Virus record (IMG/VR): IMGVR_UViG_3300008738_000302 | Direction: 5' to 3' (one strand) | DNA: 64,000 nucleotides | Source: a virus | Shown here: in pieces, positions 4,725 through 33,057 of the stretch | How the letters are laid out: every line of letters begins with the position of its first letter | Numbering within the stretch: the stretch's first letter is position 1 | Translations under genes and position numbers: made by a program | The notes under the pieces: generated by a model | Databases searched by the model: none | What the model saw: only the letters and a program-made list of their open reading frames with translations | What the model was told of the DNA's origin: nothing

Positions 4725-5673
4725 AGATATTTTATATGAAGATCAAGCGTGGAAAACTGTTAAGTTTTTATTAGATGTAAAAAAAATATCTAATGAGGTT
4801 GTAGATATGCACAATATAGAATCTATAAAGCAATTAAATGTTTCAAGTGATGATATATGTTTTGCTAGATTTGGTCATCATTTTGATGATAAGATAGCAA
4901 CTAATAAAGCATATGATGTATTAACTCAAAAATTTAATAAAATATATCCTTCAAAAGACGCATATTATTATTATGATGATAAATTAAAGCAATATGAATT
5001 TATGTTAGAAAATGATATACCTTGTTTGAAAACATATTATGTAGGTAGTAAAGAAGAGATAGAAAAATTAAATATAAAATTTCCTATAGTTACTAAAAAA
5101 ACTTGGGGGGCTGGAACTGAACAAGTTAATAAGTGGGATGATTATGAATCTATTGTTGATAATAAAGATACTCGAAGTTGGACAGGGGGATCTATATTTC
5201 CATGTTTAGTTCAAGAATATAAAGATGTAGATTATGATATTAGAGTTAGAATTTTAAACTCTAAAGTTTTCTTTACTAAAAGAATGCACGAATTTAAAAC
5301 AAAAAATAAAGATAATTTTCCATATGGTACAAAAGAGATTCTTAAAAAAGATAGAATAAAATATCATTTACCACCATATGAAGTTCCTGTAGCATTACCA
5401 ATAAATGATTTAGCAGAAGTAGAAGATATTATACCTATAGTAGAAAAATTACATAAGATTCAAAATGAAAAATTGAATAGTAATTTTGTGGTGTGGGATA
5501 TTCTTAGAACAAATGAAGGAATAAAAATTCTTGAATTTAGTCATGTTACAGTATATAAAAGTTTTCCACAAATTTATTATGATATAGAATATAAAGAAGC
5601 AAATAAATTAACAATAAAAAATCGTGAACATTTTTTTTATTTGTATAACGAAATATTAAAAGGATTAATATGA
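4705..5673 (+). CDS. RimK/glutathione-synthetase-like ATP-grasp ligase
   Basis: DDKLKQYEFMLENDIPCLKT, FPIVTKKTWGAGTEQV, LVQEY..DYDIRV, WDILRT..G.KILEFS. Confidence 0.75.
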   Translation: MKFYLHKDILYEDQAWKTVKFLLDVKKISNEVVDMHNIESIKQLNVSSDDICFARFGHHFDDKIATNKAYDVLTQKFNKIYPSKDAYYYYDDKLKQYEFMLENDIPCLKTYYVGSKEEIEKLNIKFPIVTKKTWGAGTEQVNKWDDYESIVDNKDTRSWTGGSIFPCLVQEYKDVDYDIRVRILNSKVFFTKRMHEFKTKNKDNFPYGTKEILKKDRIKYHLPPYEVPVALPINDLAEVEDIIPIVEKLHKIQNEKLNSNFVVWDILRTNEGIKILEFSHVTVYKSFPQIYYDIEYKEANKLTIKNREHFFYLYNEILKGLI

Positions 5674-7235
5674 AGAAAGTTATTATAGTTGGTGGTGGAT
5701 TTGCAGGTTACTTAACAGCGTTGTTTTTAAATAAAAAATTTCCTAAATTAAAAATTGATATAATAAAATCATCAGATAAAGAACAAATTTCTGCTGGAGA
5801 ACAAACAGGCAAAGAACAACTACAATTGTTTTTTGAATCATTAGGAATTGAAGAAACTGAATGGTTTAGTAGAACAAAATCTTTTTTAAAAATAGGTAAT
5901 TCTTTTGTTGGGTGGGGAAACCGTGAAAATTTTGATCCTCGAGTTGGTGGACCAGATGTAGTTAATCATAGTTTTGTAATGGAAAATAAATTATTACCTT
6001 TACTTAGGAATGGTGGTGGTATGAAATCCGTAAAGGATTCTATGAAATATAATGATAAGTTACATACTGAATTATATCAAAATAGTTTTTTAGAAACACC
6101 CATAGATAATACGGATGATTATATAGATAGTTTTAAAAAACACTTTAAAAATAGTTTTTTTAATAGAAAGAATAATAGAGCCATAGCTCATATGCATGAT
6201 TGGTTAGAGATAGGTAAATTTATAGAAACTAAGTTTGATGATAATGTTAAAATAATTACTGATCATATAACTGATGTGGTTGTAGATAAAAAAAATAATA
6301 CTATAGAATATCTTGTTAATAAAGATAAAGAAAAGATTAAAGCAGATCACTACGTAGATTGTACAGGTATTAGTAGAATTTTGATTTCTAAACTTAGTAA
6401 AGTTGTAGATATTAGTGATGAATATCCTGTAAATAGTGCCGTATTTGGTCCAGTAGAATATATAGATAGAACTAAAGAGATGGTGCCAACCTTATATACT
6501 ACTGCTTTTAAAAATGGTTATTCATTTAAAACACCATTACAACATAGGATAGGAACAGGATATGTCTATTCAGATAAGTATATTAGTAAAGATGAAGCAA
6601 TAGATGAGATAAATGATTATTGGGATGGTAGATTTAAGTCAGATCAAGTTAATCATTTAAAATGGACTCCATCTTATGTAGTTAAACCTTTTCAGAAAAA
6701 TTGTAGCGCTGTAGGATTAGCAGGACAATTTGATTGTCCAATGGAATCTACAGTATTTACTCAGATATCAACTGCTCTTCAACAATTAGGAAATTATTTA
6801 AATAGAGATAATAAATTATTATACATGAATCGTTCTGATATAAGAGATGAAGATATGTTAAATTATTGTAATACTTGGACTGAATATACTTTTCATAATA
6901 CAAGACATTTTAAACAAATGATGTTTTATACTACAAATAGAGATGATAGCGAATTTTGGAAGAATATTAAAACACTTAATTATTCTGATATTTTTTATAA
7001 AAAATTAAGTTTCTTTTTAGACAATTCATTTGATTATATAATAGAAAATAGAAATAAGTTTCCTGATTATACTCCACCAACAAATTTTAATATTAATGAA
7101 GATAGATTTTGGAGAGTATATCAAAAAGGATTTAAAGGATATTTTGATTATATGGGAATAAGGGGTGTAGGACATAGTATGATATTAGATGTTCATAATT
7201 GGTTAATGATTCTTGCGTATAAAAAATACATTTAA
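5670..7235 (+). CDS. FAD-dependent tryptophan-halogenase-like oxidoreductase
   Basis: VGGGFAG Rossmann motif, YVDCTGISRIL, PLQHRIGTGYVYS, AVGLAGQFDCPMEST. The WxWxIP motif is degenerate (YSFKTP). Confidence 0.75.
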   Translation: MKKVIIVGGGFAGYLTALFLNKKFPKLKIDIIKSSDKEQISAGEQTGKEQLQLFFESLGIEETEWFSRTKSFLKIGNSFVGWGNRENFDPRVGGPDVVNHSFVMENKLLPLLRNGGGMKSVKDSMKYNDKLHTELYQNSFLETPIDNTDDYIDSFKKHFKNSFFNRKNNRAIAHMHDWLEIGKFIETKFDDNVKIITDHITDVVVDKKNNTIEYLVNKDKEKIKADHYVDCTGISRILISKLSKVVDISDEYPVNSAVFGPVEYIDRTKEMVPTLYTTAFKNGYSFKTPLQHRIGTGYVYSDKYISKDEAIDEINDYWDGRFKSDQVNHLKWTPSYVVKPFQKNCSAVGLAGQFDCPMESTVFTQISTALQQLGNYLNRDNKLLYMNRSDIRDEDMLNYCNTWTEYTFHNTRHFKQMMFYTTNRDDSEFWKNIKTLNYSDIFYKKLSFFLDNSFDYIIENRNKFPDYTPPTNFNINEDRFWRVYQKGFKGYFDYMGIRGVGHSMILDVHNWLMILAYKKYI

Positions 7236-10193: not shown

Positions 10194-10670
10194 ATGACTA
10201 AAATCGCATTTCGTACAAACATCCCTTACTTCGATAGGGATTCTTTTTTGACCCCGTTTGATAAAATATTCGATCAAATGGTTGAAACTCATTATCCAGA
10301 AATAACAAAATCCGTTGGTGTAAAACCATATGGTAATACTGCATATCCAAAAGTTAACGTATATGAATACGACGACAAAGTGGGTATTGTAGCAGAGATT
10401 CCTGGATTAAACAAGAAACAACTCAAAGTAGATGTTGAAGATGGAACTCTTACAATATCTGGAGATAAACACGGTTCTTTAATGAAAGATCAAGGTGCTA
10501 GAGTTATCCGTAAGGAATTAAAGCAATCTTCATTTAAAAGACAATTTGAATTGGGTGAGTTGTTAGATGGTGAGAACATTTCAGCCAATTTTAAGGATGG
10601 AATTTTATCTGTCTCAATTCCTAAGATGGAGCAGGAACAACCGAAGAAGACTACTGTAAAAATATCCTAA
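10194..10670 (+). CDS. hsp20: Small heat-shock protein (Hsp20/alpha-crystallin)
   Basis: PKVNVYE...AEIPGL.K..LKVDVEDGTLTISG...SFKRQF.L...ISANFKDGILSVSIPK. Confidence 0.92.
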   Translation: MTKIAFRTNIPYFDRDSFLTPFDKIFDQMVETHYPEITKSVGVKPYGNTAYPKVNVYEYDDKVGIVAEIPGLNKKQLKVDVEDGTLTISGDKHGSLMKDQGARVIRKELKQSSFKRQFELGELLDGENISANFKDGILSVSIPKMEQEQPKKTTVKIS

Positions 10671-10928: not shown

Positions 10929-11114
10929 GTGGATGATTTTTTTGATAAATTATTTCAAAAAATAGCAGAATTTCATGAAAGAGAAATTCATATGAGTCAA
11001 TCTTTAGCAGAGAATGATGAAGACATACCAATGTATGTTTTAGAGAAGGCAAGACAAGATTTTCATCTTAAAGAATATTTGTGGTTTAATAGAGATAAGA
11101 TACCTAGTGCATAA
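10929..11114 (+). CDS. Hypothetical protein
   Basis: GTG start with AAGGAG RBS. Confidence 0.55.
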   Translation: MDDFFDKLFQKIAEFHEREIHMSQSLAENDEDIPMYVLEKARQDFHLKEYLWFNRDKIPSA

Positions 11115-11131
11115 TAACATTAAGGAGTTAC

Positions 11132-11311
11132 ATGAAATATCAACGTACTGTAGAAGAAAGACTTGATCAATTATTACAAGTTATTGAAAGACTCATTGAA
11201 AGAGTAACAGATAATACTATTGATAGAGATGATCTTTCTAATCAATTAAGTAATTTACATGAAAGATTAGAACAAGTACATGGGTTAGTAGAATTGGAAG
11301 ATGAAGATTAG
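11132..11311 (+). CDS. Small acidic coiled-coil protein (59 aa), not in ORF track
   Basis: AAGGAG RBS; MKYQRTVEERLDQLLQVIERLIERVTD...LELEDED*-type helical sequence. Confidence 0.6.
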   Translation: MKYQRTVEERLDQLLQVIERLIERVTDNTIDRDDLSNQLSNLHERLEQVHGLVELEDED

Positions 11312-11326
11312 AGAACTAAATATTAT

Positions 11327-12160
11327 ATGCTTGAACGATTTAAAAACTTTAAATTATTAATCGGTATATCTGCTTTAACAGTAGCAGGGTCAGCAGCGTT
11401 CTTTTCAGTATTTGGTTTATCAAAGTTATTTTCAGGAGCACAAACTTCAGTAATTATAATGGCAGGTTCATTAGAGTTTACTAAACTTGTAGCCGCTTCA
11501 TTTTTATATCAGTATTGGTATAGAGCCAGTAAGATATTAAAAACTTATTTAGGTATAGGTGTAGTAGTATTAGTTCTTATAACATCAGCAGGTATCTTTG
11601 GATATCTATCAAATGCATATCAAGGTGCAACTATAAATTTTGAAAAACAATCAACAACATTATTATATAAAGAAGATAGATTAGAACAATTAGAAGATGA
11701 TAAAACTTATCTAAAAGAAGAGTTAGAACAATCTATTGCTTCTTTACCAGAAAATTATATTACAGCAAAAAGAAAACTTCGTGAAGATTATAATCCAAAA
11801 GTATTAGCAGTCAATGATGAGATATTAAAAATTAAACAAGAGATTGGTGATTTAAAAGTTGAATTAATAGAAACTGGGGTGGATGTGGGTCCCGCAATTT
11901 ATTTGGCAAGAGTATTTGGAACTGATGTAGATACAGTTGTAAAGTTCTTTATATTCATTTTAATTTTTGTATTCGATCCAATGGCATTAGCTATGGTATT
12001 AGCATGGAATACTGCACTTGGTAGAAGAAGTTTTGAAGTATATGAAGAGGGTGATAAAAAGGAAAAAGAAAAGGGTGATAAAAATAAAAAAGAAAGAAAA
12101 GTCCTAACAGGCCCCGAATTTGATGATAGACCACGAAAGGGAAGTGTAAAAATTGTATAA
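11327..12160 (+). CDS. Multi-TM membrane protein with coiled coil (DUF4407-like)
   Basis: Three N-terminal TM helices, a coiled coil, and a C-terminal TM (FFIFILIFVFDPMALAMVLAW). Confidence 0.6.
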   Translation: MLERFKNFKLLIGISALTVAGSAAFFSVFGLSKLFSGAQTSVIIMAGSLEFTKLVAASFLYQYWYRASKILKTYLGIGVVVLVLITSAGIFGYLSNAYQGATINFEKQSTTLLYKEDRLEQLEDDKTYLKEELEQSIASLPENYITAKRKLREDYNPKVLAVNDEILKIKQEIGDLKVELIETGVDVGPAIYLARVFGTDVDTVVKFFIFILIFVFDPMALAMVLAWNTALGRRSFEVYEEGDKKEKEKGDKNKKERKVLTGPEFDDRPRKGSVKIV

Positions 12161-12174
12161 TAAAAATTTCACAT

Positions 12175-12260
12175 ACCGCGGGGGTGATAACCGAAAACAG
12201 GCAGTTGACGCACCTGTAGAAAAATGCGTCTTACACTAAAAAAAAACGAGGAGACGTTTC
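12175..12260 (+). promoter_or_regulatory. Candidate cis-regulatory RNA switch (H-type pseudoknot vs anti-SD helix)
   Basis: S1 ACAGG 12197-12201/CCTGT 12213-12217; S2 GACGCA 12207-12212/TGCGTC 12225-12230; A-rich L3 AGAAAAA. The alternative helix GCGTCTT 12226-12232/GAGACGT 12251-12257 overlaps the GAGGAG RBS. Confidence 0.5.
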
Positions 12261-15053
12261 ATGAAAAACAAACGTAATCTAATCTCATTGGTAATAACAT
12301 TTCTAATGCCTATGTTCATTTATGGACAAAGTGTTAGTGGTACGGTTGCTGATGAGGCAGGGAATCCTTTGGCTGGAGCTAATGTAGTTGTACAAGGAAC
12401 TGATTTGGGTGCCGCTTCTTTGGAAGATGGTACTTATTCGATTAAAATCGGAGAAGGTTCACATACACTAATAGCTTCTGTTATCGGGTATGAATCATCT
12501 TCACAAACAGTAGATGTTAGTGGAGATATTAGTCTCGACTTTAGCTTAGCGGTTTCCGCAGTCGAGATGTCAGCATTGGAAGTTTTGGCTTCCCGTGCAG
12601 GCGAAAAAACACCTGTTGCTTATACTACGGTAGAAAAAGCAGATATGGAATTCCGTCTTGGTAGTCAAGACCTTCCAATGGCGCTTAATCTAACACCATC
12701 AGTATATGCTACGCAACAAGGTGGTGGTGCGGGTGATGCTCGTATCAATGTTCGAGGTTTTAATCAACGGAATGTAGCAGTAATGATTAATGGAGTACCA
12801 CAAAATGATATGGAAAACGGTTGGGTTTATTGGTCCAATTGGGATGGTGTAGCAGATGCTGCACATTCTATCCAGATGCAACGTGGTTTAAGTGCTGTTA
12901 ATTTAGCTACACCTTCCATTGGTGGAACTATGAACATAATTACAGACCCTACCTCTCACATAAAGGGTGGTAAGGTAAAACAAGAAGTTGGTGCTGGTGA
13001 TTTTCTTAAAACTACAGTAAACTATAATACTGGCTTGATAGGTGATAAATTTGCCTTGAGTGGTACAGTAGTACGTAAAACTGGTGGTGGAATCATTGAC
13101 AAAACGTGGACAGATGCTTGGGCATATTACTTTGGTGCAAGTTACGCACTAAATGCTGATAACCGATTTGAATTATACGCAATCGGTGCGCCACAGCGAC
13201 ACGCACACAATCTATATAAACAGAATATTGGTGCATATGATGCTGATTTTGCTGCAAGTATAGATGGATATGATACTGAAGCACTTGGTGAAGATGGTAA
13301 GTTCAAGGATGTTGGACGTACATTTAATCAAAATTGGTCTCCAGTAGACCCATCATATACAGGTAAACAATACTATTATATGTATGGTGCTAAAACAGTA
13401 GCAAGACACGATCCCAACTTTATTAACGAAAGAGAAAATTTCTTTCACAAGCCTTTAGTAAACCTAAATCATTTTCTAACTATTAATGACAAAACAATGT
13501 TAAGTTCAGTATTGTATTGGAGTGGTGGTTCAGGTGGTGGTACAGGTACTTATGGTAGGATTCCTACTATGGATGCTGATGGTAATCTTGGTGATGATGA
13601 CTATAAATTTTATTATGGTCGTTCTCCCTGGACACGTGATTGGAATGCTCTTATCGCTATGAATAGTGGTGATTCTGATACAGTTTATGTAGACAAAAGA
13701 GTAATCACACGCACACATGGTATTGATAATAATCAATCTGTAGGTATTTTGAGAAATAGCATTAATCGTCAGAATACATATGGCCTTATTTCTAAACTTA
13801 ATTATGATGTAAGTGATGAACTTCAATTACAATTAGGTATAGATTGGAGAACTGCTGGTATAGAACACGCACGTGAAGTACGTGATCTAATGGGTGGTGA
13901 TTATTATGTGGATTATGCTGATGATAATGTACCTGATGGTAAAAGAGTTGGATTAGGTGATATAATCGCTTATCATAACTCAACCACAGTTGATTGGTTA
14001 GGTGGATTCTTACAAGGAGCTTATGCTTCAGGTCCACTTTCAGCCTATGGTATGGTAGGATTATCACAGATTGGATATTCATATCAAGACCATTTTACTG
14101 TAGCCGATGAGAAGATTGTAGCAGATCCTATTTCCACTTTACAATGGAAAGGTGGGGCAATGTATGATGTTACTGATAACGTTTCAGTTTTTGGTAATTT
14201 TGGTATTGTTGAAAAGCCACCAATTATGGATAATGTAATCTATTATGATGGTACGGTTGCTTCAGATCCTGCAAATGAAAGATTTGTAAGTTCAGAAGCT
14301 GGTGCTCACTACGCGACGGATAAAGTAGCAGTTAAAGTGTCTGCATATAATACAGATTGGAAAGACAGAAACCTTACCAAATCTGTAACAAGCGGACAAG
14401 GTTCAAGCGGTGATACTGATGTGATTTTCCTTTCGGGGATAAATCAGAATCATAAAGGTGTTGAAGTTGAAGCTTCTACACAAGTACTTGATGTACTTAA
14501 CTTACAAGCTATAGTAAGTCTTGGTACTTGGAAGTTTGTAGGTGATGCAGCAGGTAACTATCAAGAAGATGAGTTTAACGAAGAAGGTCAAGTTATCGGA
14601 CAGACAACTACACCTTATTCTTACGCACTTGATGGTTTGTTTGTTGGTGATATGCCTCAAACATCTTACGCACTTGTTGGAACGCTTACACCAATTAAAG
14701 GTCTAAAAATGCAAGCAGTATACAAACAGTATGATAATAATTATGCTGATTGGAGTCCTGACGCTCGTGAGTATGATGGCTCAGATGCTGGTGCAGATAG
14801 AGAACAAGTATGGATGGCACCTGGATATTCCAGAGTTGACTTACATGCTTCATATGCTCTACCTTCAATTGGTGGTATGGATTTTACCGCATTTGCTCAT
14901 GTATTTAATGCAACAGATGCAACATACATTCAAGATGCAGTAGATCATAGTCAGTATAATAGCTACGGAGATAAAACTCACGCAGCACACAACGCTGAAG
15001 TTTTTCTTGGAACACCAAGATACTTTAACGCAGGAATTTCTGTAAATTTCTAA
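12261..15053 (+). CDS. TonB-dependent outer-membrane receptor with N-terminal carboxypeptidase-regulatory-like domain
   Basis: Signal peptide; VSGTVADEAGNPLAGANVVVQGT..G.Y.I; plug INVRGF...VMINGVP...IQMQRG...GGTMNIIT; beta-barrel repeats; C-terminal Phe (ISVNF). Confidence 0.92.
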   Translation: MKNKRNLISLVITFLMPMFIYGQSVSGTVADEAGNPLAGANVVVQGTDLGAASLEDGTYSIKIGEGSHTLIASVIGYESSSQTVDVSGDISLDFSLAVSAVEMSALEVLASRAGEKTPVAYTTVEKADMEFRLGSQDLPMALNLTPSVYATQQGGGAGDARINVRGFNQRNVAVMINGVPQNDMENGWVYWSNWDGVADAAHSIQMQRGLSAVNLATPSIGGTMNIITDPTSHIKGGKVKQEVGAGDFLKTTVNYNTGLIGDKFALSGTVVRKTGGGIIDKTWTDAWAYYFGASYALNADNRFELYAIGAPQRHAHNLYKQNIGAYDADFAASIDGYDTEALGEDGKFKDVGRTFNQNWSPVDPSYTGKQYYYMYGAKTVARHDPNFINERENFFHKPLVNLNHFLTINDKTMLSSVLYWSGGSGGGTGTYGRIPTMDADGNLGDDDYKFYYGRSPWTRDWNALIAMNSGDSDTVYVDKRVITRTHGIDNNQSVGILRNSINRQNTYGLISKLNYDVSDELQLQLGIDWRTAGIEHAREVRDLMGGDYYVDYADDNVPDGKRVGLGDIIAYHNSTTVDWLGGFLQGAYASGPLSAYGMVGLSQIGYSYQDHFTVADEKIVADPISTLQWKGGAMYDVTDNVSVFGNFGIVEKPPIMDNVIYYDGTVASDPANERFVSSEAGAHYATDKVAVKVSAYNTDWKDRNLTKSVTSGQGSSGDTDVIFLSGINQNHKGVEVEASTQVLDVLNLQAIVSLGTWKFVGDAAGNYQEDEFNEEGQVIGQTTTPYSYALDGLFVGDMPQTSYALVGTLTPIKGLKMQAVYKQYDNNYADWSPDAREYDGSDAGADREQVWMAPGYSRVDLHASYALPSIGGMDFTAFAHVFNATDATYIQDAVDHSQYNSYGDKTHAAHNAEVFLGTPRYFNAGISVNF

Positions 15054-15068
15054 AATAGTATAATATGT

Positions 15069-15097
15069 GGGGGCTGGGGAAACTGGCCCCCCTATTT
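15069..15097 (+). terminator. Intrinsic terminator after the TBDR gene
   Basis: GGGGGCTGG-GGAAA-CTGGCCCCC stem followed by CTATTT. Confidence 0.6.
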
Positions 15098-15100
15098 ACT

Positions 15101-15286
15101 ATGTTAAAACAGAAAGATATACCAAATAAAGATTTTGATTGTAATCCAAAAGGTGATTGTTGGTGTAGAAAAAAACCATTTCCACAATTACCATATTCAG
15201 GATCTATTACTTTTATAGGTGATGCACCCGACATATGTTATTCACCAAAAGAGCTAGAATTAATCATTAAAGAGCAAAAAAAATAA
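15101..15286 (+). CDS. Small Cys-rich protein (CWC-motif-like)
   Basis: DCNPKGDCWCRKKPF...CYSPKEL. ATG at 15101 chosen because the ORF-track start at 15065 translates the terminator. Confidence 0.45.
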   Translation: MLKQKDIPNKDFDCNPKGDCWCRKKPFPQLPYSGSITFIGDAPDICYSPKELELIIKEQKK

Positions 15287-15328
15287 TTAAAAAAAGGCTT
15301 GACTCGTATTGCATTTTATCCTTATGAT
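15281..15328 (+). promoter_or_regulatory. Sigma70-like early promoter, copy 1
   Basis: A-rich UP-like element, TTGACT (15299-15304), N18, TATGAT (15323-15328). Confidence 0.6.
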
Positions 15329-15346
15329 CAGGATGAAAGGGAAATT

Positions 15347-15706
15347 ATGAGAATATACGACAAATATGATGCAGTGAAAAAAGCGGCATCTTCTTTACGA
15401 TCAGAAATGAATCGTATTCTAAAACCCAAAGGGTTTAAATTAAACATAAAAACAAATGCAAATTATTACTATAAATATGAGTTAATTGCTACGATTTGTT
15501 CACCAAATTGGTTCGATGATTATACTGATCCTAATGACCGATGGTCAGTAACGCCTAAATTAGAAAGCCTCAGGGATTCCATTACAAAGCGTTTTATACA
15601 CATATTACACGATATAGTTAAGGATATGGATGAAATTACAGATTGGGTTGAAGAAGATGATGTTAGTGCTGATATTAGGTTTAGTTACAACGTAGGTAGT
15701 TGGTAA
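15347..15706 (+). CDS. Hypothetical early protein
   Basis: ATG 15347 with GAAAGGG upstream; in frame with the ORF-track TTG 15299, which is actually the -35 box. Confidence 0.55.
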   Translation: MRIYDKYDAVKKAASSLRSEMNRILKPKGFKLNIKTNANYYYKYELIATICSPNWFDDYTDPNDRWSVTPKLESLRDSITKRFIHILHDIVKDMDEITDWVEEDDVSADIRFSYNVGSW

Positions 15707-31377: not shown

Positions 31378-33057
31378 ATGCCAACAAATACCGTAGGGCC
31401 AAAAACAGATATTAGCAAAGATGTTAAATATCTTAATAAAGATTTTCAAGGATTTAGAAATGATTTGATAGAATTTGCTAAAACTTATTTTCCAACAAGT
31501 TATACGGATTTTAATGAATCAAGTCCTGGAATGATGTTTATAGAAATGGCAGCTTATATTGGTGATGTTCTTTCTTATTATGTAGATAATCAATTTAAAG
31601 AATCTTTAATGGCATATGCTGAAGAAAAAAGAACTATATTGGATATAGCACAATCTTTAGGATATAAACCAAAAATTAGTTATCCATCATTTGTAACTTT
31701 AGATGTTTATCAAACTGTACCAGCTGTTGGTGCTGCAGATGCTGTTAGACCAAATATGAATTATGCTTTAACTGTTAAAAGTAATACGAGAGCAAAATCA
31801 GTTACTACAGGAAAAACTTTTAGATTTTTAGATGATGTTAATTTTAAATATTCAAGTTCTTACGATTCTACTACAGTTTCTATTTTTGAAACAAATAGTA
31901 ATGTTCCTACAAAATATTTGTTAAAGAAAAGAGTTAGGGCTGTTAGTGGTGAAATAAAAGAAGAATTGTTTACTTTCGTAACAGCAGTTAAGTATGATAA
32001 AGTAGTATTATCTAATCCAAAAGTTATTGATATAATTTCAGTAACCGATAGTGATGGAAACTTATGGTATGAAGTTCCTTTCTTAGCACAAGATACAATA
32101 TATGATGAAGTGGAGAATGTATCAGCAAATGATTCTGATTTAACTCAATATAATGATACTGCACCTTATCTATTAAAGTTAAGAAAGACACCACGAAGAT
32201 TTACAACATATGTTAGAGATGATAATAGAACTGAGTTAAGATTTGGTGCAGGTGTTTCGGATAATCCTGATGAGGAGATAGTTCCAAATCCAGATAACGT
32301 TGGTTCTAGTTTACCAGGAGGTGTTTCAAAATTAGACCAAGCGTTTGATCCAGCAAACTTTCTTAATACAAGAACTTATGGATTAGCACCAGCCAACACA
32401 ACATTGACAATTAAGTATACTGTAGGTGGTGGTATCGAAGATAATGTTTTTTCTAATGATATTAAAAATTTAAGTGATATTTCATATGAAATAGACGAAT
32501 CTAATTTAGTAGCTGGTACTGTTACACAAGTTAAAGAATCTGTAGCAGTTAACAATCCTGATCCTGCTACAGGTGGTAGATCGGGTGAATCATTGACTGA
32601 AATTAAACAAAATTCTTTAGCATATTTTCAAGCACAAAGTAGAGCAGTTACGAAAGAGGATTATATGGTAAGAGCATTATCATTACCACAAAGATTTGGG
32701 AACATAGCAAAAGTATATCTTGTTCAAGATGAACAACTAAATCAATCTGAAGAACAAGTTCAAGAGCCAGAAGTTAGTGTACAAGATGCAGCACCAGCAC
32801 TTGAACAACAAATTGAAGAAATTTCACCTATAAGACAAGTTAAAGCAGACATGAAATCTGCAGCAGCTACACCAGCTTTAGAATCACCTGTTAAAGTTAG
32901 AAAAACTATAGCAAAAGCTAGAAAAGTATCACGTTCACAGAAAGTTCAAGCAAGAAAAGGTAAAGGTAGACCTGCTAGTAATATAAGAAAAGGTGGAATT
33001 AGTCGTGGTCGTCCAATGTCAGATAAAGGTGCAACAAAAGGTAAAAGGGGAGGATAG
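31378..33057 (+). CDS. Baseplate wedge protein, T4 gp6-like, N-terminal part
   Basis: YLNKDFQGFRNDLIEFAKTYFP, SSPGMMFIEMAAYIGDVLSYY, RAVTKEDY; ends in an acidic-then-basic low-complexity tail. Confidence 0.8.
   Translation: MPTNTVGPKTDISKDVKYLNKDFQGFRNDLIEFAKTYFPTSYTDFNESSPGMMFIEMAAYIGDVLSYYVDNQFKESLMAYAEEKRTILDIAQSLGYKPKISYPSFVTLDVYQTVPAVGAADAVRPNMNYALTVKSNTRAKSVTTGKTFRFLDDVNFKYSSSYDSTTVSIFETNSNVPTKYLLKKRVRAVSGEIKEELFTFVTAVKYDKVVLSNPKVIDIISVTDSDGNLWYEVPFLAQDTIYDEVENVSANDSDLTQYNDTAPYLLKLRKTPRRFTTYVRDDNRTELRFGAGVSDNPDEEIVPNPDNVGSSLPGGVSKLDQAFDPANFLNTRTYGLAPANTTLTIKYTVGGGIEDNVFSNDIKNLSDISYEIDESNLVAGTVTQVKESVAVNNPDPATGGRSGESLTEIKQNSLAYFQAQSRAVTKEDYMVRALSLPQRFGNIAKVYLVQDEQLNQSEEQVQEPEVSVQDAAPALEQQIEEISPIRQVKADMKSAAATPALESPVKVRKTIAKARKVSRSQKVQARKGKGRPASNIRKGGISRGRPMSDKGATKGKRGG

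Follow-up and report, generated by a model that had tools for sequence, protein, structure and literature searches.

The sequence considered here, IMG/VR record IMGVR_UViG_3300008738_000302, is a fragmentary record of an uncultured marine virus (64,000 nt, approx. 30% GC, CheckV completeness 38%) with all its genes on the plus strand; this whole stretch is hereafter called the window. It carries the gene of a TonB-dependent receptor (TBDR), and the 5' leader of this gene holds a compact H-type pseudoknot, made of two stems (S1 and S2) and three loops (L1 to L3). The pseudoknot and the gene that follows it are laid out as follows, in window positions:

12197-12201, plus strand: 5' strand of S1 (ACAGG), pairing with 12213-12217.
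12202-12206, plus strand: L1 (CAGTT), with CA invariant in 89 leaders, G kept in more than 90% and the last two nucleotides variable.
12207-12212, plus strand: 5' strand of S2 (GACGCA), pairing with 12225-12230.
12213-12217, plus strand: 3' strand of S1 (CCTGT), abutting S2 directly (L2 of 0 nt).
12218-12224, plus strand: L3 (AGAAAAA), its final five A invariant.
12225-12230, plus strand: 3' strand of S2 (TGCGTC), supported by the alignment and by RNAalifold.
12261-15053, plus strand: TBDR gene, encoding 930 amino acids with CarbopepD_reg_2, Plug and barrel domains.

The pseudoknot occupies 34 nt (12197-12230), at positions -64 to -31 relative to the AUG, and its architecture (S1 of 5 bp, L1 CAGTT, S2 of 6 bp, L2 of 0 nt, L3 AGAAAAA) is exactly the one put forward in an earlier sequence-only reading of this locus. 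When the 100-nt leader (12161-12260) was shuffled 5000 times, an all-Watson-Crick H-type pseudoknot of equal size arose in only 6 cases. The minimum free energy (MFE) of nested folds gave a z-score of -0.07, a value that is uninformative as nested models cannot represent pseudoknots. A terminator-like match on the minus strand (12217-12197) was rejected as S1 read backwards, the G-U pairs and the orientation of the genes both favouring the plus strand.

Homologous leaders were collected from viral contigs by a protein-guided scan, which returned 306 loci with relatives of the receptor (80 of these, at 65-89% identity, were kept), and by a DNA-pattern scan, which added approximately 60 further instances. 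The motif was present in 78 of the 78 TBDR loci having upstream sequence, and the alignment (A1) comprised 89 distinct leaders. In these leaders, S2 and the four inner pairs of S1 were paired in 100% of cells, and the outer pair of S1 in 78%; overall, 98% of 979 cells were paired and 70 were changed on both sides. Double changes affected three of the six S2 pairs (26, 14 and 4 cells) and two inner pairs of S1 (C-G exchanged with U-A in 10 cells, A-U with U-A in 11), making five pairs in total with compensatory changes. When the 3' partners were slid by 1-3 columns as a control, pairing was 19-56%, and the observed covariation was reached in none of 500 shuffles. RNAalifold, to which no structure was supplied, predicted S2 as the sole consensus helix. 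On a maximum-likelihood tree of the receptors (residues 31-400, 74 rows), the variable pairs required at least 10, 11 and 3 state changes in S2, and at least 8 and 4 in S1; the compensatory changes thus reflect many events, not a single inherited one. Moreover, six G-U cells are compatible with the plus strand only. These results confirm that the pseudoknot is a real and strongly conserved folded RNA, far beyond chance: covariation of both helices among homologous phage leaders, which had been named as a check of the sequence-only reading, was found over the 89 leaders. A conserved, covarying structured domain in a 5' leader is also one of the general marks of a riboswitch.

Despite the divergence of the receptor proteins to 61% identity, 17 of the 34 pseudoknot positions are invariant (GGCA, C.CACC and AAAAAUG.G), and these are clustered round the junction of the two stacked helices. 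Similarly, five of the 11 base pairs never change, with neighbouring pairs flipped repeatedly. Since the invariant nucleotides gather at the helical junction, we infer a triple-helical core that would form a binding pocket or surface, the CAG of L1 probably lying beside the invariant S2 pairs in the deep groove, and the five final adenines of L3 beside the two invariant G-C pairs of S1 in the shallow groove.

Wherever the gene downstream of the motif could be read, it was a receptor homologue with its ATG 22-39 nt past the motif, a TBDR being the sole gene type ever seen in that place. A covariance model built from the motif (R1), used for genome searches, retrieved a single copy in the window and exactly one in each of five related records of 70-132 kb, always at the receptor gene. 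Among 80 related-phage loci fetched through the upstream gene of the window, the motif was detected in only seven, those with the receptor. The cassette formed by pseudoknot and receptor follows the gene of an adenosylcobalamin (AdoCbl)-dependent ribonucleoside-triphosphate reductase in 63 of 73 loci, and precedes that of a family B DNA polymerase in 30 of 66. Considering the 70 reductase loci with enough downstream sequence, 59 contained both pseudoknot and receptor, one (L448) displayed the receptor with an L1-variant pseudoknot (TAGTGCA), and 10 had neither, the polymerase gene standing directly next. In the window and in ten other loci the cassette is located elsewhere, behind a gene for a 277-amino-acid protein, with the motif retained. 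Because the motif tracks the presence of the TBDR and has accompanied the moved cassettes, the RNA belongs to the receptor gene and not to a genome position. The reductase gene was not seen in the window's own record or in five same-position fragments, which are all only 11-38% complete and hence uninformative on this point.

Outside the pseudoknot, the leader and the end of the cassette show the following features:

12167-12176, plus strand: box TTTCACATAC, shared by approximately 70% of the homologous leaders and placed 2-30 nt ahead of the pseudoknot.
12231-12247, plus strand: linker between the pseudoknot and the Shine-Dalgarno (SD) sequence, G-poor and A/C-rich, approximately 16-30 nt long across leaders.
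12248-12253, plus strand: SD sequence GAGGAG, of which the AGGAGA core is more than 90% conserved.
12248-12286, plus strand: hairpin at the ribosome-binding site (RBS), with an inner helix ACGTTT (12254-12259) / AAACGT (12270-12275), then AATCT..TCTC.
15069-15091, plus strand: terminator-like hairpin of 9 bp, GC-rich and with a weak T tail, lying directly after the receptor stop codon and closing the cassette.

The RBS hairpin ties the 3' half of the SD and the spacer to codons 4-8 of the receptor gene, the sequence of which, CGTAATCT (Arg-Asn-Leu), is kept even at wobble positions. The ATG of the window (12261-12263) lies in the loop of this hairpin; in some variants it lies in the stem. Native duplexes between spacer and codons 4-8 reached -6.72 kcal/mol, versus -5.73 kcal/mol for swapped ones, and none of 2000 permutations was as good; a spacer-shuffle test, for which 69 unique leaders were folded, gave a median rank of 0.09 and a mean z of -1.6, the native order of the spacer surpassing most of its permutations. 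Across the variants of the hairpin the helix is kept via two-sided changes or a register shift: ACTTTT/AAAAGT (with an Arg-to-Ser codon change), ACGATT/AATCGT, ACGATA/TATCGT, ACGTA/TACGT, ACGC/GCGT, AGATTAT/ATAATCT, AGATTAC/GTAATCT and GATTATGA/TCGTAATC. The hairpin is moderately stable, at -4.7 kcal/mol in the window and, for the most part, between -5 and -8 kcal/mol in other leaders. On this comparative evidence, the RBS hairpin is a second conserved and selected element of the leader. The GAGGAG-type SD as such also precedes the structural genes of the phage.

The box TTTCACATAC possibly marks the 5' end of the transcript or a promoter-proximal region, or else forms part of the RNA; as a general phage promoter it was rejected, its occurrence elsewhere in the window being at chance level. 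A sigma-70 scan gave nothing convincing ahead of the leader, and the TATAAT at 12156-12161 was discarded as a promoter, as it overlaps the upstream stop codons and is not significant in DNA of 30% GC. Between box and pseudoknot, the window displays a small, variable G/C-rich hairpin (12174-12191, ACCGCGGGGGT), with equivalents CCCGCGTGGG and ACCTCGTGGGT in relatives among L001, L009, L033 and L221, that is, in some of the leaders only; in others its place is taken by (A/T)GCGGAC. The linker may likewise bear an extra short palindromic hairpin, TTAACTTCGTTAA in L017, L064, L068 and L194 or TTCATTAATGAA in L212, L233, L263 and L274, and L079 also carries such an insert.

Transcription could be approached through metatranscriptome contigs from four runs of one study, which are weak evidence. 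RNA-library contigs identical to the window span 12204-15251, some of them beginning inside or just past the pseudoknot, and this cover is consistent with a leader co-transcribed with the receptor gene. The upstream gene (11000-12203) and positions 15252-15600 had zero contig cover, although gaps in such data say nothing on transcript ends. One contig (14988-15251) reads through the hairpin at 15069-15091. No terminator was found between the pseudoknot and the AUG; transcription attenuation is thus unlikely.

As for the origin of the receptor, full-length orthologues were identified in 198 of 401 Marinimicrobia genomes, at up to 76% identity, whereas the best Flavobacteriaceae homologues reached only 35-37% over the full length. 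The phage receptor gene came from Marinimicrobia. Its G+C content is 38%, versus 29% in the flanks. Among GenBank phages, nothing matched at the DNA level and no TBDR homologue exceeded 30% identity. The phage itself is T4-like, with gp32 encoded in relatives and a baseplate wedge protein in the window. By this wedge protein (31378-33057), the nearest cultured relative is Microcystis phage Mel-JY01 (50%), followed by Flavobacterium phage vB_FspM_immuto (43%); the receptor, by contrast, has its closest cellular relatives in Marinimicrobia, so that these data do not point to a single host.

The leaders of the host orthologues share the SD context (AACCAAGGAGAAC..ATGAATCGT) and some possess a CACATACC-like box; otherwise they fold differently. 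In L503, L509, L510, L513 and L522, the stretch approximately 60-130 nt upstream of the ATG contains a hairpin of the form TTGGCA..GGTG..loop..CACC TGCCAA, with an A-rich run and the phage-type SD context behind it, some of these leaders also having CACCACATACC, which resembles the phage box TTTCACATACC. This hairpin, which looks conserved, may be the ancestral regulatory element. Among 20 host loci, no Rfam riboswitch was detected. A deoxynucleoside kinase gene follows the receptor orthologue in two host loci (L516, 4388-5053; L518, 818-1480), and a gene for an SOS-response-associated peptidase (SRAP) precedes it in four (L507, L511, L518 and L523); both neighbours hint at a nucleoside-type cargo. 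Vitamin B12 had been raised as the leading ligand by the AdoCbl-dependent reductase next to the cassette; it was dropped because the host orthologues are devoid of B12 riboswitches and adjoin a deoxynucleoside kinase, and because the receptor is not BtuB-like by NCBIfam. The kinase neighbour in hosts, along with the position of the phage cassette between reductase and polymerase, weakly suggests a cargo of nucleoside type rather than B12.

Several other neighbours were noted in passing. In the phage loci, the reductase (e.g. L015, 61-2916) carries an inserted intein that includes an HNH endonuclease, and has a conserved C-terminus (..GDNDDQEYAN). In some relatives, the gene after the receptor encodes a glutamine-synthetase-like protein (seven loci, e.g. 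L024, 5896-6894) or a PNKP-type HAD phosphatase (seven loci, e.g. L006, 3636-4157), and L068 contains two tRNA genes at 5737-5886. Upstream of the receptor, the window encodes a tryptophan-halogenase-like protein (phrog_2928, 5670-7235) and an HSP20 small heat-shock protein (10194-10670), HSP20 being found near the cassette in nine of 80 loci.

Two simple ways in which the leader could act find little favour with these data. The sequence-only reading had described a translational ON riboswitch, in which the 3' strand of S2 pairs with the SD region unless a ligand locks the pseudoknot, and a similar logic has been proposed for guanidine-III. The pairing itself does exist: GCGTCTT (12226-12232) and GAGACGT (12251-12257) form 7 bp, two of them G-U, overlapping the GAGGAG at 12248-12253, and this duplex is seen in the nested MFE fold of the window. 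As a switch, however, it shows no covariation. Indeed, over 68 unique combinations the native duplexes (-5.62 kcal/mol) did not differ significantly from swapped ones (-5.32 kcal/mol), 211 of 2000 permutations being as good. In the folding ensembles of 80 leaders the 3' strand of S2 paired with the RBS region with a mean probability of 0.03-0.05, versus approximately 0.8 for S2, and no other pairing hot spot between pseudoknot and RBS region emerged. Both the SD-ATG spacer and the nucleotides 3' of S2 change between leaders with no complementarity maintained, the spacer co-varying with codons 4-8 instead. Neither covariation nor thermodynamics revealed a platform pairing that competes with the pseudoknot, the RBS hairpin being separate. 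The mutually exclusive S2/SD switch must consequently be regarded as very unlikely. An even more improbable possibility is that the invariant AUG at 12224-12226 starts a leader peptide controlling the receptor. The AAAAAUG is invariant and stands behind an A-rich tract, and in the window the upstream open reading frame has 17 codons (12224-12277), overlaps the TBDR start and ends at a TAA inside CGTAATCT; yet its frames relative to the main AUG are split 41/28/20 among the leaders, its length ranges from 3 to 18 codons or it is fused to the receptor, its stop is unconserved, and the letters of the AUG are accounted for by L3 and the first two pairs of S2. Reading from this AUG runs into the receptor frame without meeting a stop in 20 of the 89 leaders, and would there add an N-terminal extension.

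From these comparisons, the element is a new RNA family, although its kind, a regulatory pseudoknot acting in cis from a 5' leader, is a familiar one; it is specific to one widespread group of marine T4-like phages. Control would be exerted on translation initiation, and possibly also on the life of the mRNA, and three live readings of almost equal weight, namely a riboswitch, a protein operator, and a stabiliser or standby site, can be put forward. Tentatively, we read the leader as a ligand-sensing translational control leader, a riboswitch of a new class without an anti-SD swap. What survives here of the riboswitch-like pseudoknot first proposed is a selected 5'-leader structure resembling a small aptamer; the expression platform proposed with it is not supported. 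Aptamers of this build, small H-type pseudoknots in which L3 is rich in A, are known from the preQ1-I, SAM-II and guanidine-III riboswitches, and no kind of gene is under riboswitch control more often than transporter genes; the transporter gene downstream, the invariant junction, the single copy per genome and the small-aptamer architecture all support this riboswitch reading. In a more specific form, which we consider possible but doubtful, a new and very small riboswitch class would have arisen in marine T4-like phages of Marinimicrobia (SAR406), sensing a nucleoside, deoxynucleoside or nucleotide (a corrinoid being less likely) and tuning translation of the importer at an occluded RBS. The leader would then constitute a two-part cis-acting control region for translation initiation: the compact, self-folding pseudoknot would sense a small molecule connected with the part that the receptor plays in supplying nucleotides for phage DNA synthesis, and the RBS hairpin would lock the 3' half of the SD and the spacer, restraining 30S binding. 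Occupancy of the pseudoknot would alter the ease of ribosome loading at the occluded RBS, and the importer would feed phage DNA synthesis. Several points weigh against the riboswitch. The pseudoknot and the RBS region are not joined by any conserved pairing of the mutually exclusive kind, and the former lies 17-30 nt from the SD, farther than in known pseudoknot riboswitches. Recurrence before related genes in several lineages, generally expected of a riboswitch, was not observed, as the motif is limited to one TBDR family of one phage group. The pseudoknot was not found before the 25 closest Marinimicrobia orthologues, and covariance-model searches of 151 Flavobacteriaceae and 151 Marinimicrobia genomes gave no true match, an absence from cells and host orthologues that lowers the odds of a general metabolite riboswitch. 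Finally, pseudoknots whose triple helix is purely structural also typically have invariant nucleotides at the junction. Weak R1 matches in five Marinimicrobia genomes were rejected, none being a pseudoknot and none lying before a TBDR; likewise, a loose pattern scan of cellular genome contigs gave at least 120 chance matches, with both helices in none among the matches listed.

Alternatively, the pseudoknot might nucleate binding of a phage or host protein that blocks the RBS, by analogy with T4 gp32 on the gene 32 leader; receptor synthesis could, for example, follow the amount of free single-strand-binding protein and, through it, the activity of replication. In the T4 gene 32 operator, a pseudoknot at approximately -70 to -40 is followed by an unstructured A/U-rich stretch, and the geometry observed here (-64 to -31, then a G-poor linker and the SD) is close to it. 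Such an operator also agrees with T4-like phages that encode gp32 and a baseplate wedge protein, with the usual position of the cassette in the replication module, between ribonucleotide reductase and DNA polymerase, with a phage-specific motif not found in the cellular genomes searched, and with a pseudoknot that is stable alone and has no switching partner. Nonetheless, we hold it to be rather unlikely. The receptor is an outer-membrane protein, which makes autogenous control impossible; the gene 32 leaders of five relatives are without the pseudoknot; one copy per genome implies a regulator dedicated to a single gene; and strict base identity at the junction is unlike RNA recognition by gp32. 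No RegA-like protein was found in five records, which are fragmentary and in which the control search gave no signal. A gp43 operator was discarded as well, as the motif does not precede the DNA polymerase gene in relatives without the TBDR. An element that is constitutive and structural, guarding the mRNA from 5'-dependent decay or serving as a standby site for 30S at the RBS hairpin, would give fast and high expression early in infection, and has in our view a similarly low probability. The fold is autonomous and predicted to dominate (S2 probability of approximately 0.8), with no alternative pairing, is present in every cassette, whatever its position, and ends at a roughly constant distance from the ATG (22-39 nt). 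An occluded RBS would moreover profit from a standby site, and the RNA-library contigs beginning inside or just after the pseudoknot point very weakly the same way. However, five of the 11 pairs and the loop nucleotides are fixed here, whereas simple stabiliser hairpins tolerate any pair, and the other highly expressed genes of the phage are without such an element (one match per genome).

Phage-borne outer-membrane importers are increasingly recognised as a widespread viral rewiring of nutrient uptake in the ocean. In this context, a 34-nt pseudoknot with unusually clean comparative support, linked in 100% of cases to one gene, is of interest whichever way it acts. If it binds a metabolite, it would represent an aptamer class that is both new and minimal, and would reveal what the cargo is or which signal governs uptake in infection; if it is a protein binder, a stabiliser or a standby site, it would extend phage translational control beyond the classical T4 cases. 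In addition, it is small enough for direct biochemistry and structure determination, and provides a sequence tag for this phage group in metagenomes and metatranscriptomes.

Known RNA families gave no counterpart. Rfam 15 returned no family match, tRNAs aside, in the window, in the leader (E <= 10; searches of 141-601 nt) or in 16 homologous phage loci; weak matches to rli23, STnc150 and sR23 were attributed to chance. The leader fell outside the covariance models of preQ1-I, -II and -III, SAM-II, SAM-V, guanidine-III, TPP and cobalamin (RF00522, RF00059, RF00174/RF01482/RF01689), and the lack of TPP and cobalamin signatures, B12 box included, noted in the sequence-only reading was thereby upheld. 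Full-text literature searches returned no description of an RNA element ahead of phage-borne TonB receptors, which have themselves been described (PMC9723777; bioRxiv 10.64898/2026.10.24.761521).

The closest parallel in architecture is the preQ1-I riboswitch (RF00522), likewise an H-type pseudoknot of 34 nt whose first stem has 5 bp, with coaxial stems and an A-rich L3 ending in a run of A, placed in the 5' leader of an uptake gene, and the likeness in topology was checked. The phage leader shares the 5-bp P1 and the A-rich L3, but not the short P2 by the SD or the L2 cytosine: S2 has 6 bp instead of 3-4 bp, L2 has 0 nt and so no ligand-pairing cytosine, L1 is CAGNN, the SD lies 17-30 nt downstream and not in or next to P2, and the element has no connection with queuosine genes. 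Guanidine-III (ykkC-III), SAM-II and SAM-V are likewise small classical pseudoknots with triplex loop nucleotides, acting on the translation of transporter genes; the phage L1, however, does not display the ACGR motif of guanidine-III, the gene association is another one, and the phage leader has no conserved SD-sequestering alternative. The cobalamin riboswitch of btuB (RF00174) resembles the phage leader in its place ahead of a TBDR, here usually near an AdoCbl-dependent reductase, and in the RBS-occluding hairpin downstream, whereas the phage element is approximately six times smaller, neither a B12 box nor a model match is present in the window, the 16 phage loci or the 20 host loci, the phage receptor is not BtuB-like, and its Marinimicrobia orthologues adjoin a deoxynucleoside kinase and not B12 genes. 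With the T4 gene 32 operator, the element has in common a T4-like phage and an H-type pseudoknot some 30-65 nt before the AUG, with an A-rich, unstructured stretch and the SD in between; it differs in that it is not ahead of gene 32, and so not on the mRNA of the binding protein itself, in that the regulated receptor cannot bind RNA, and in its strictly conserved junction. A last comparison is offered by the vitamin B12 aptamer, which is of about the size of the phage pseudoknot and contains a triplex. This aptamer, selected in vitro, is a pseudoknotted RNA (PDB 1DDY; PMC6031003). It is artificial, no sequence likeness is claimed and the B12 link of the phage receptor is weak, but, as a short pseudoknot binding a large cofactor, it shows that an RNA of approximately this size can bind such a ligand.

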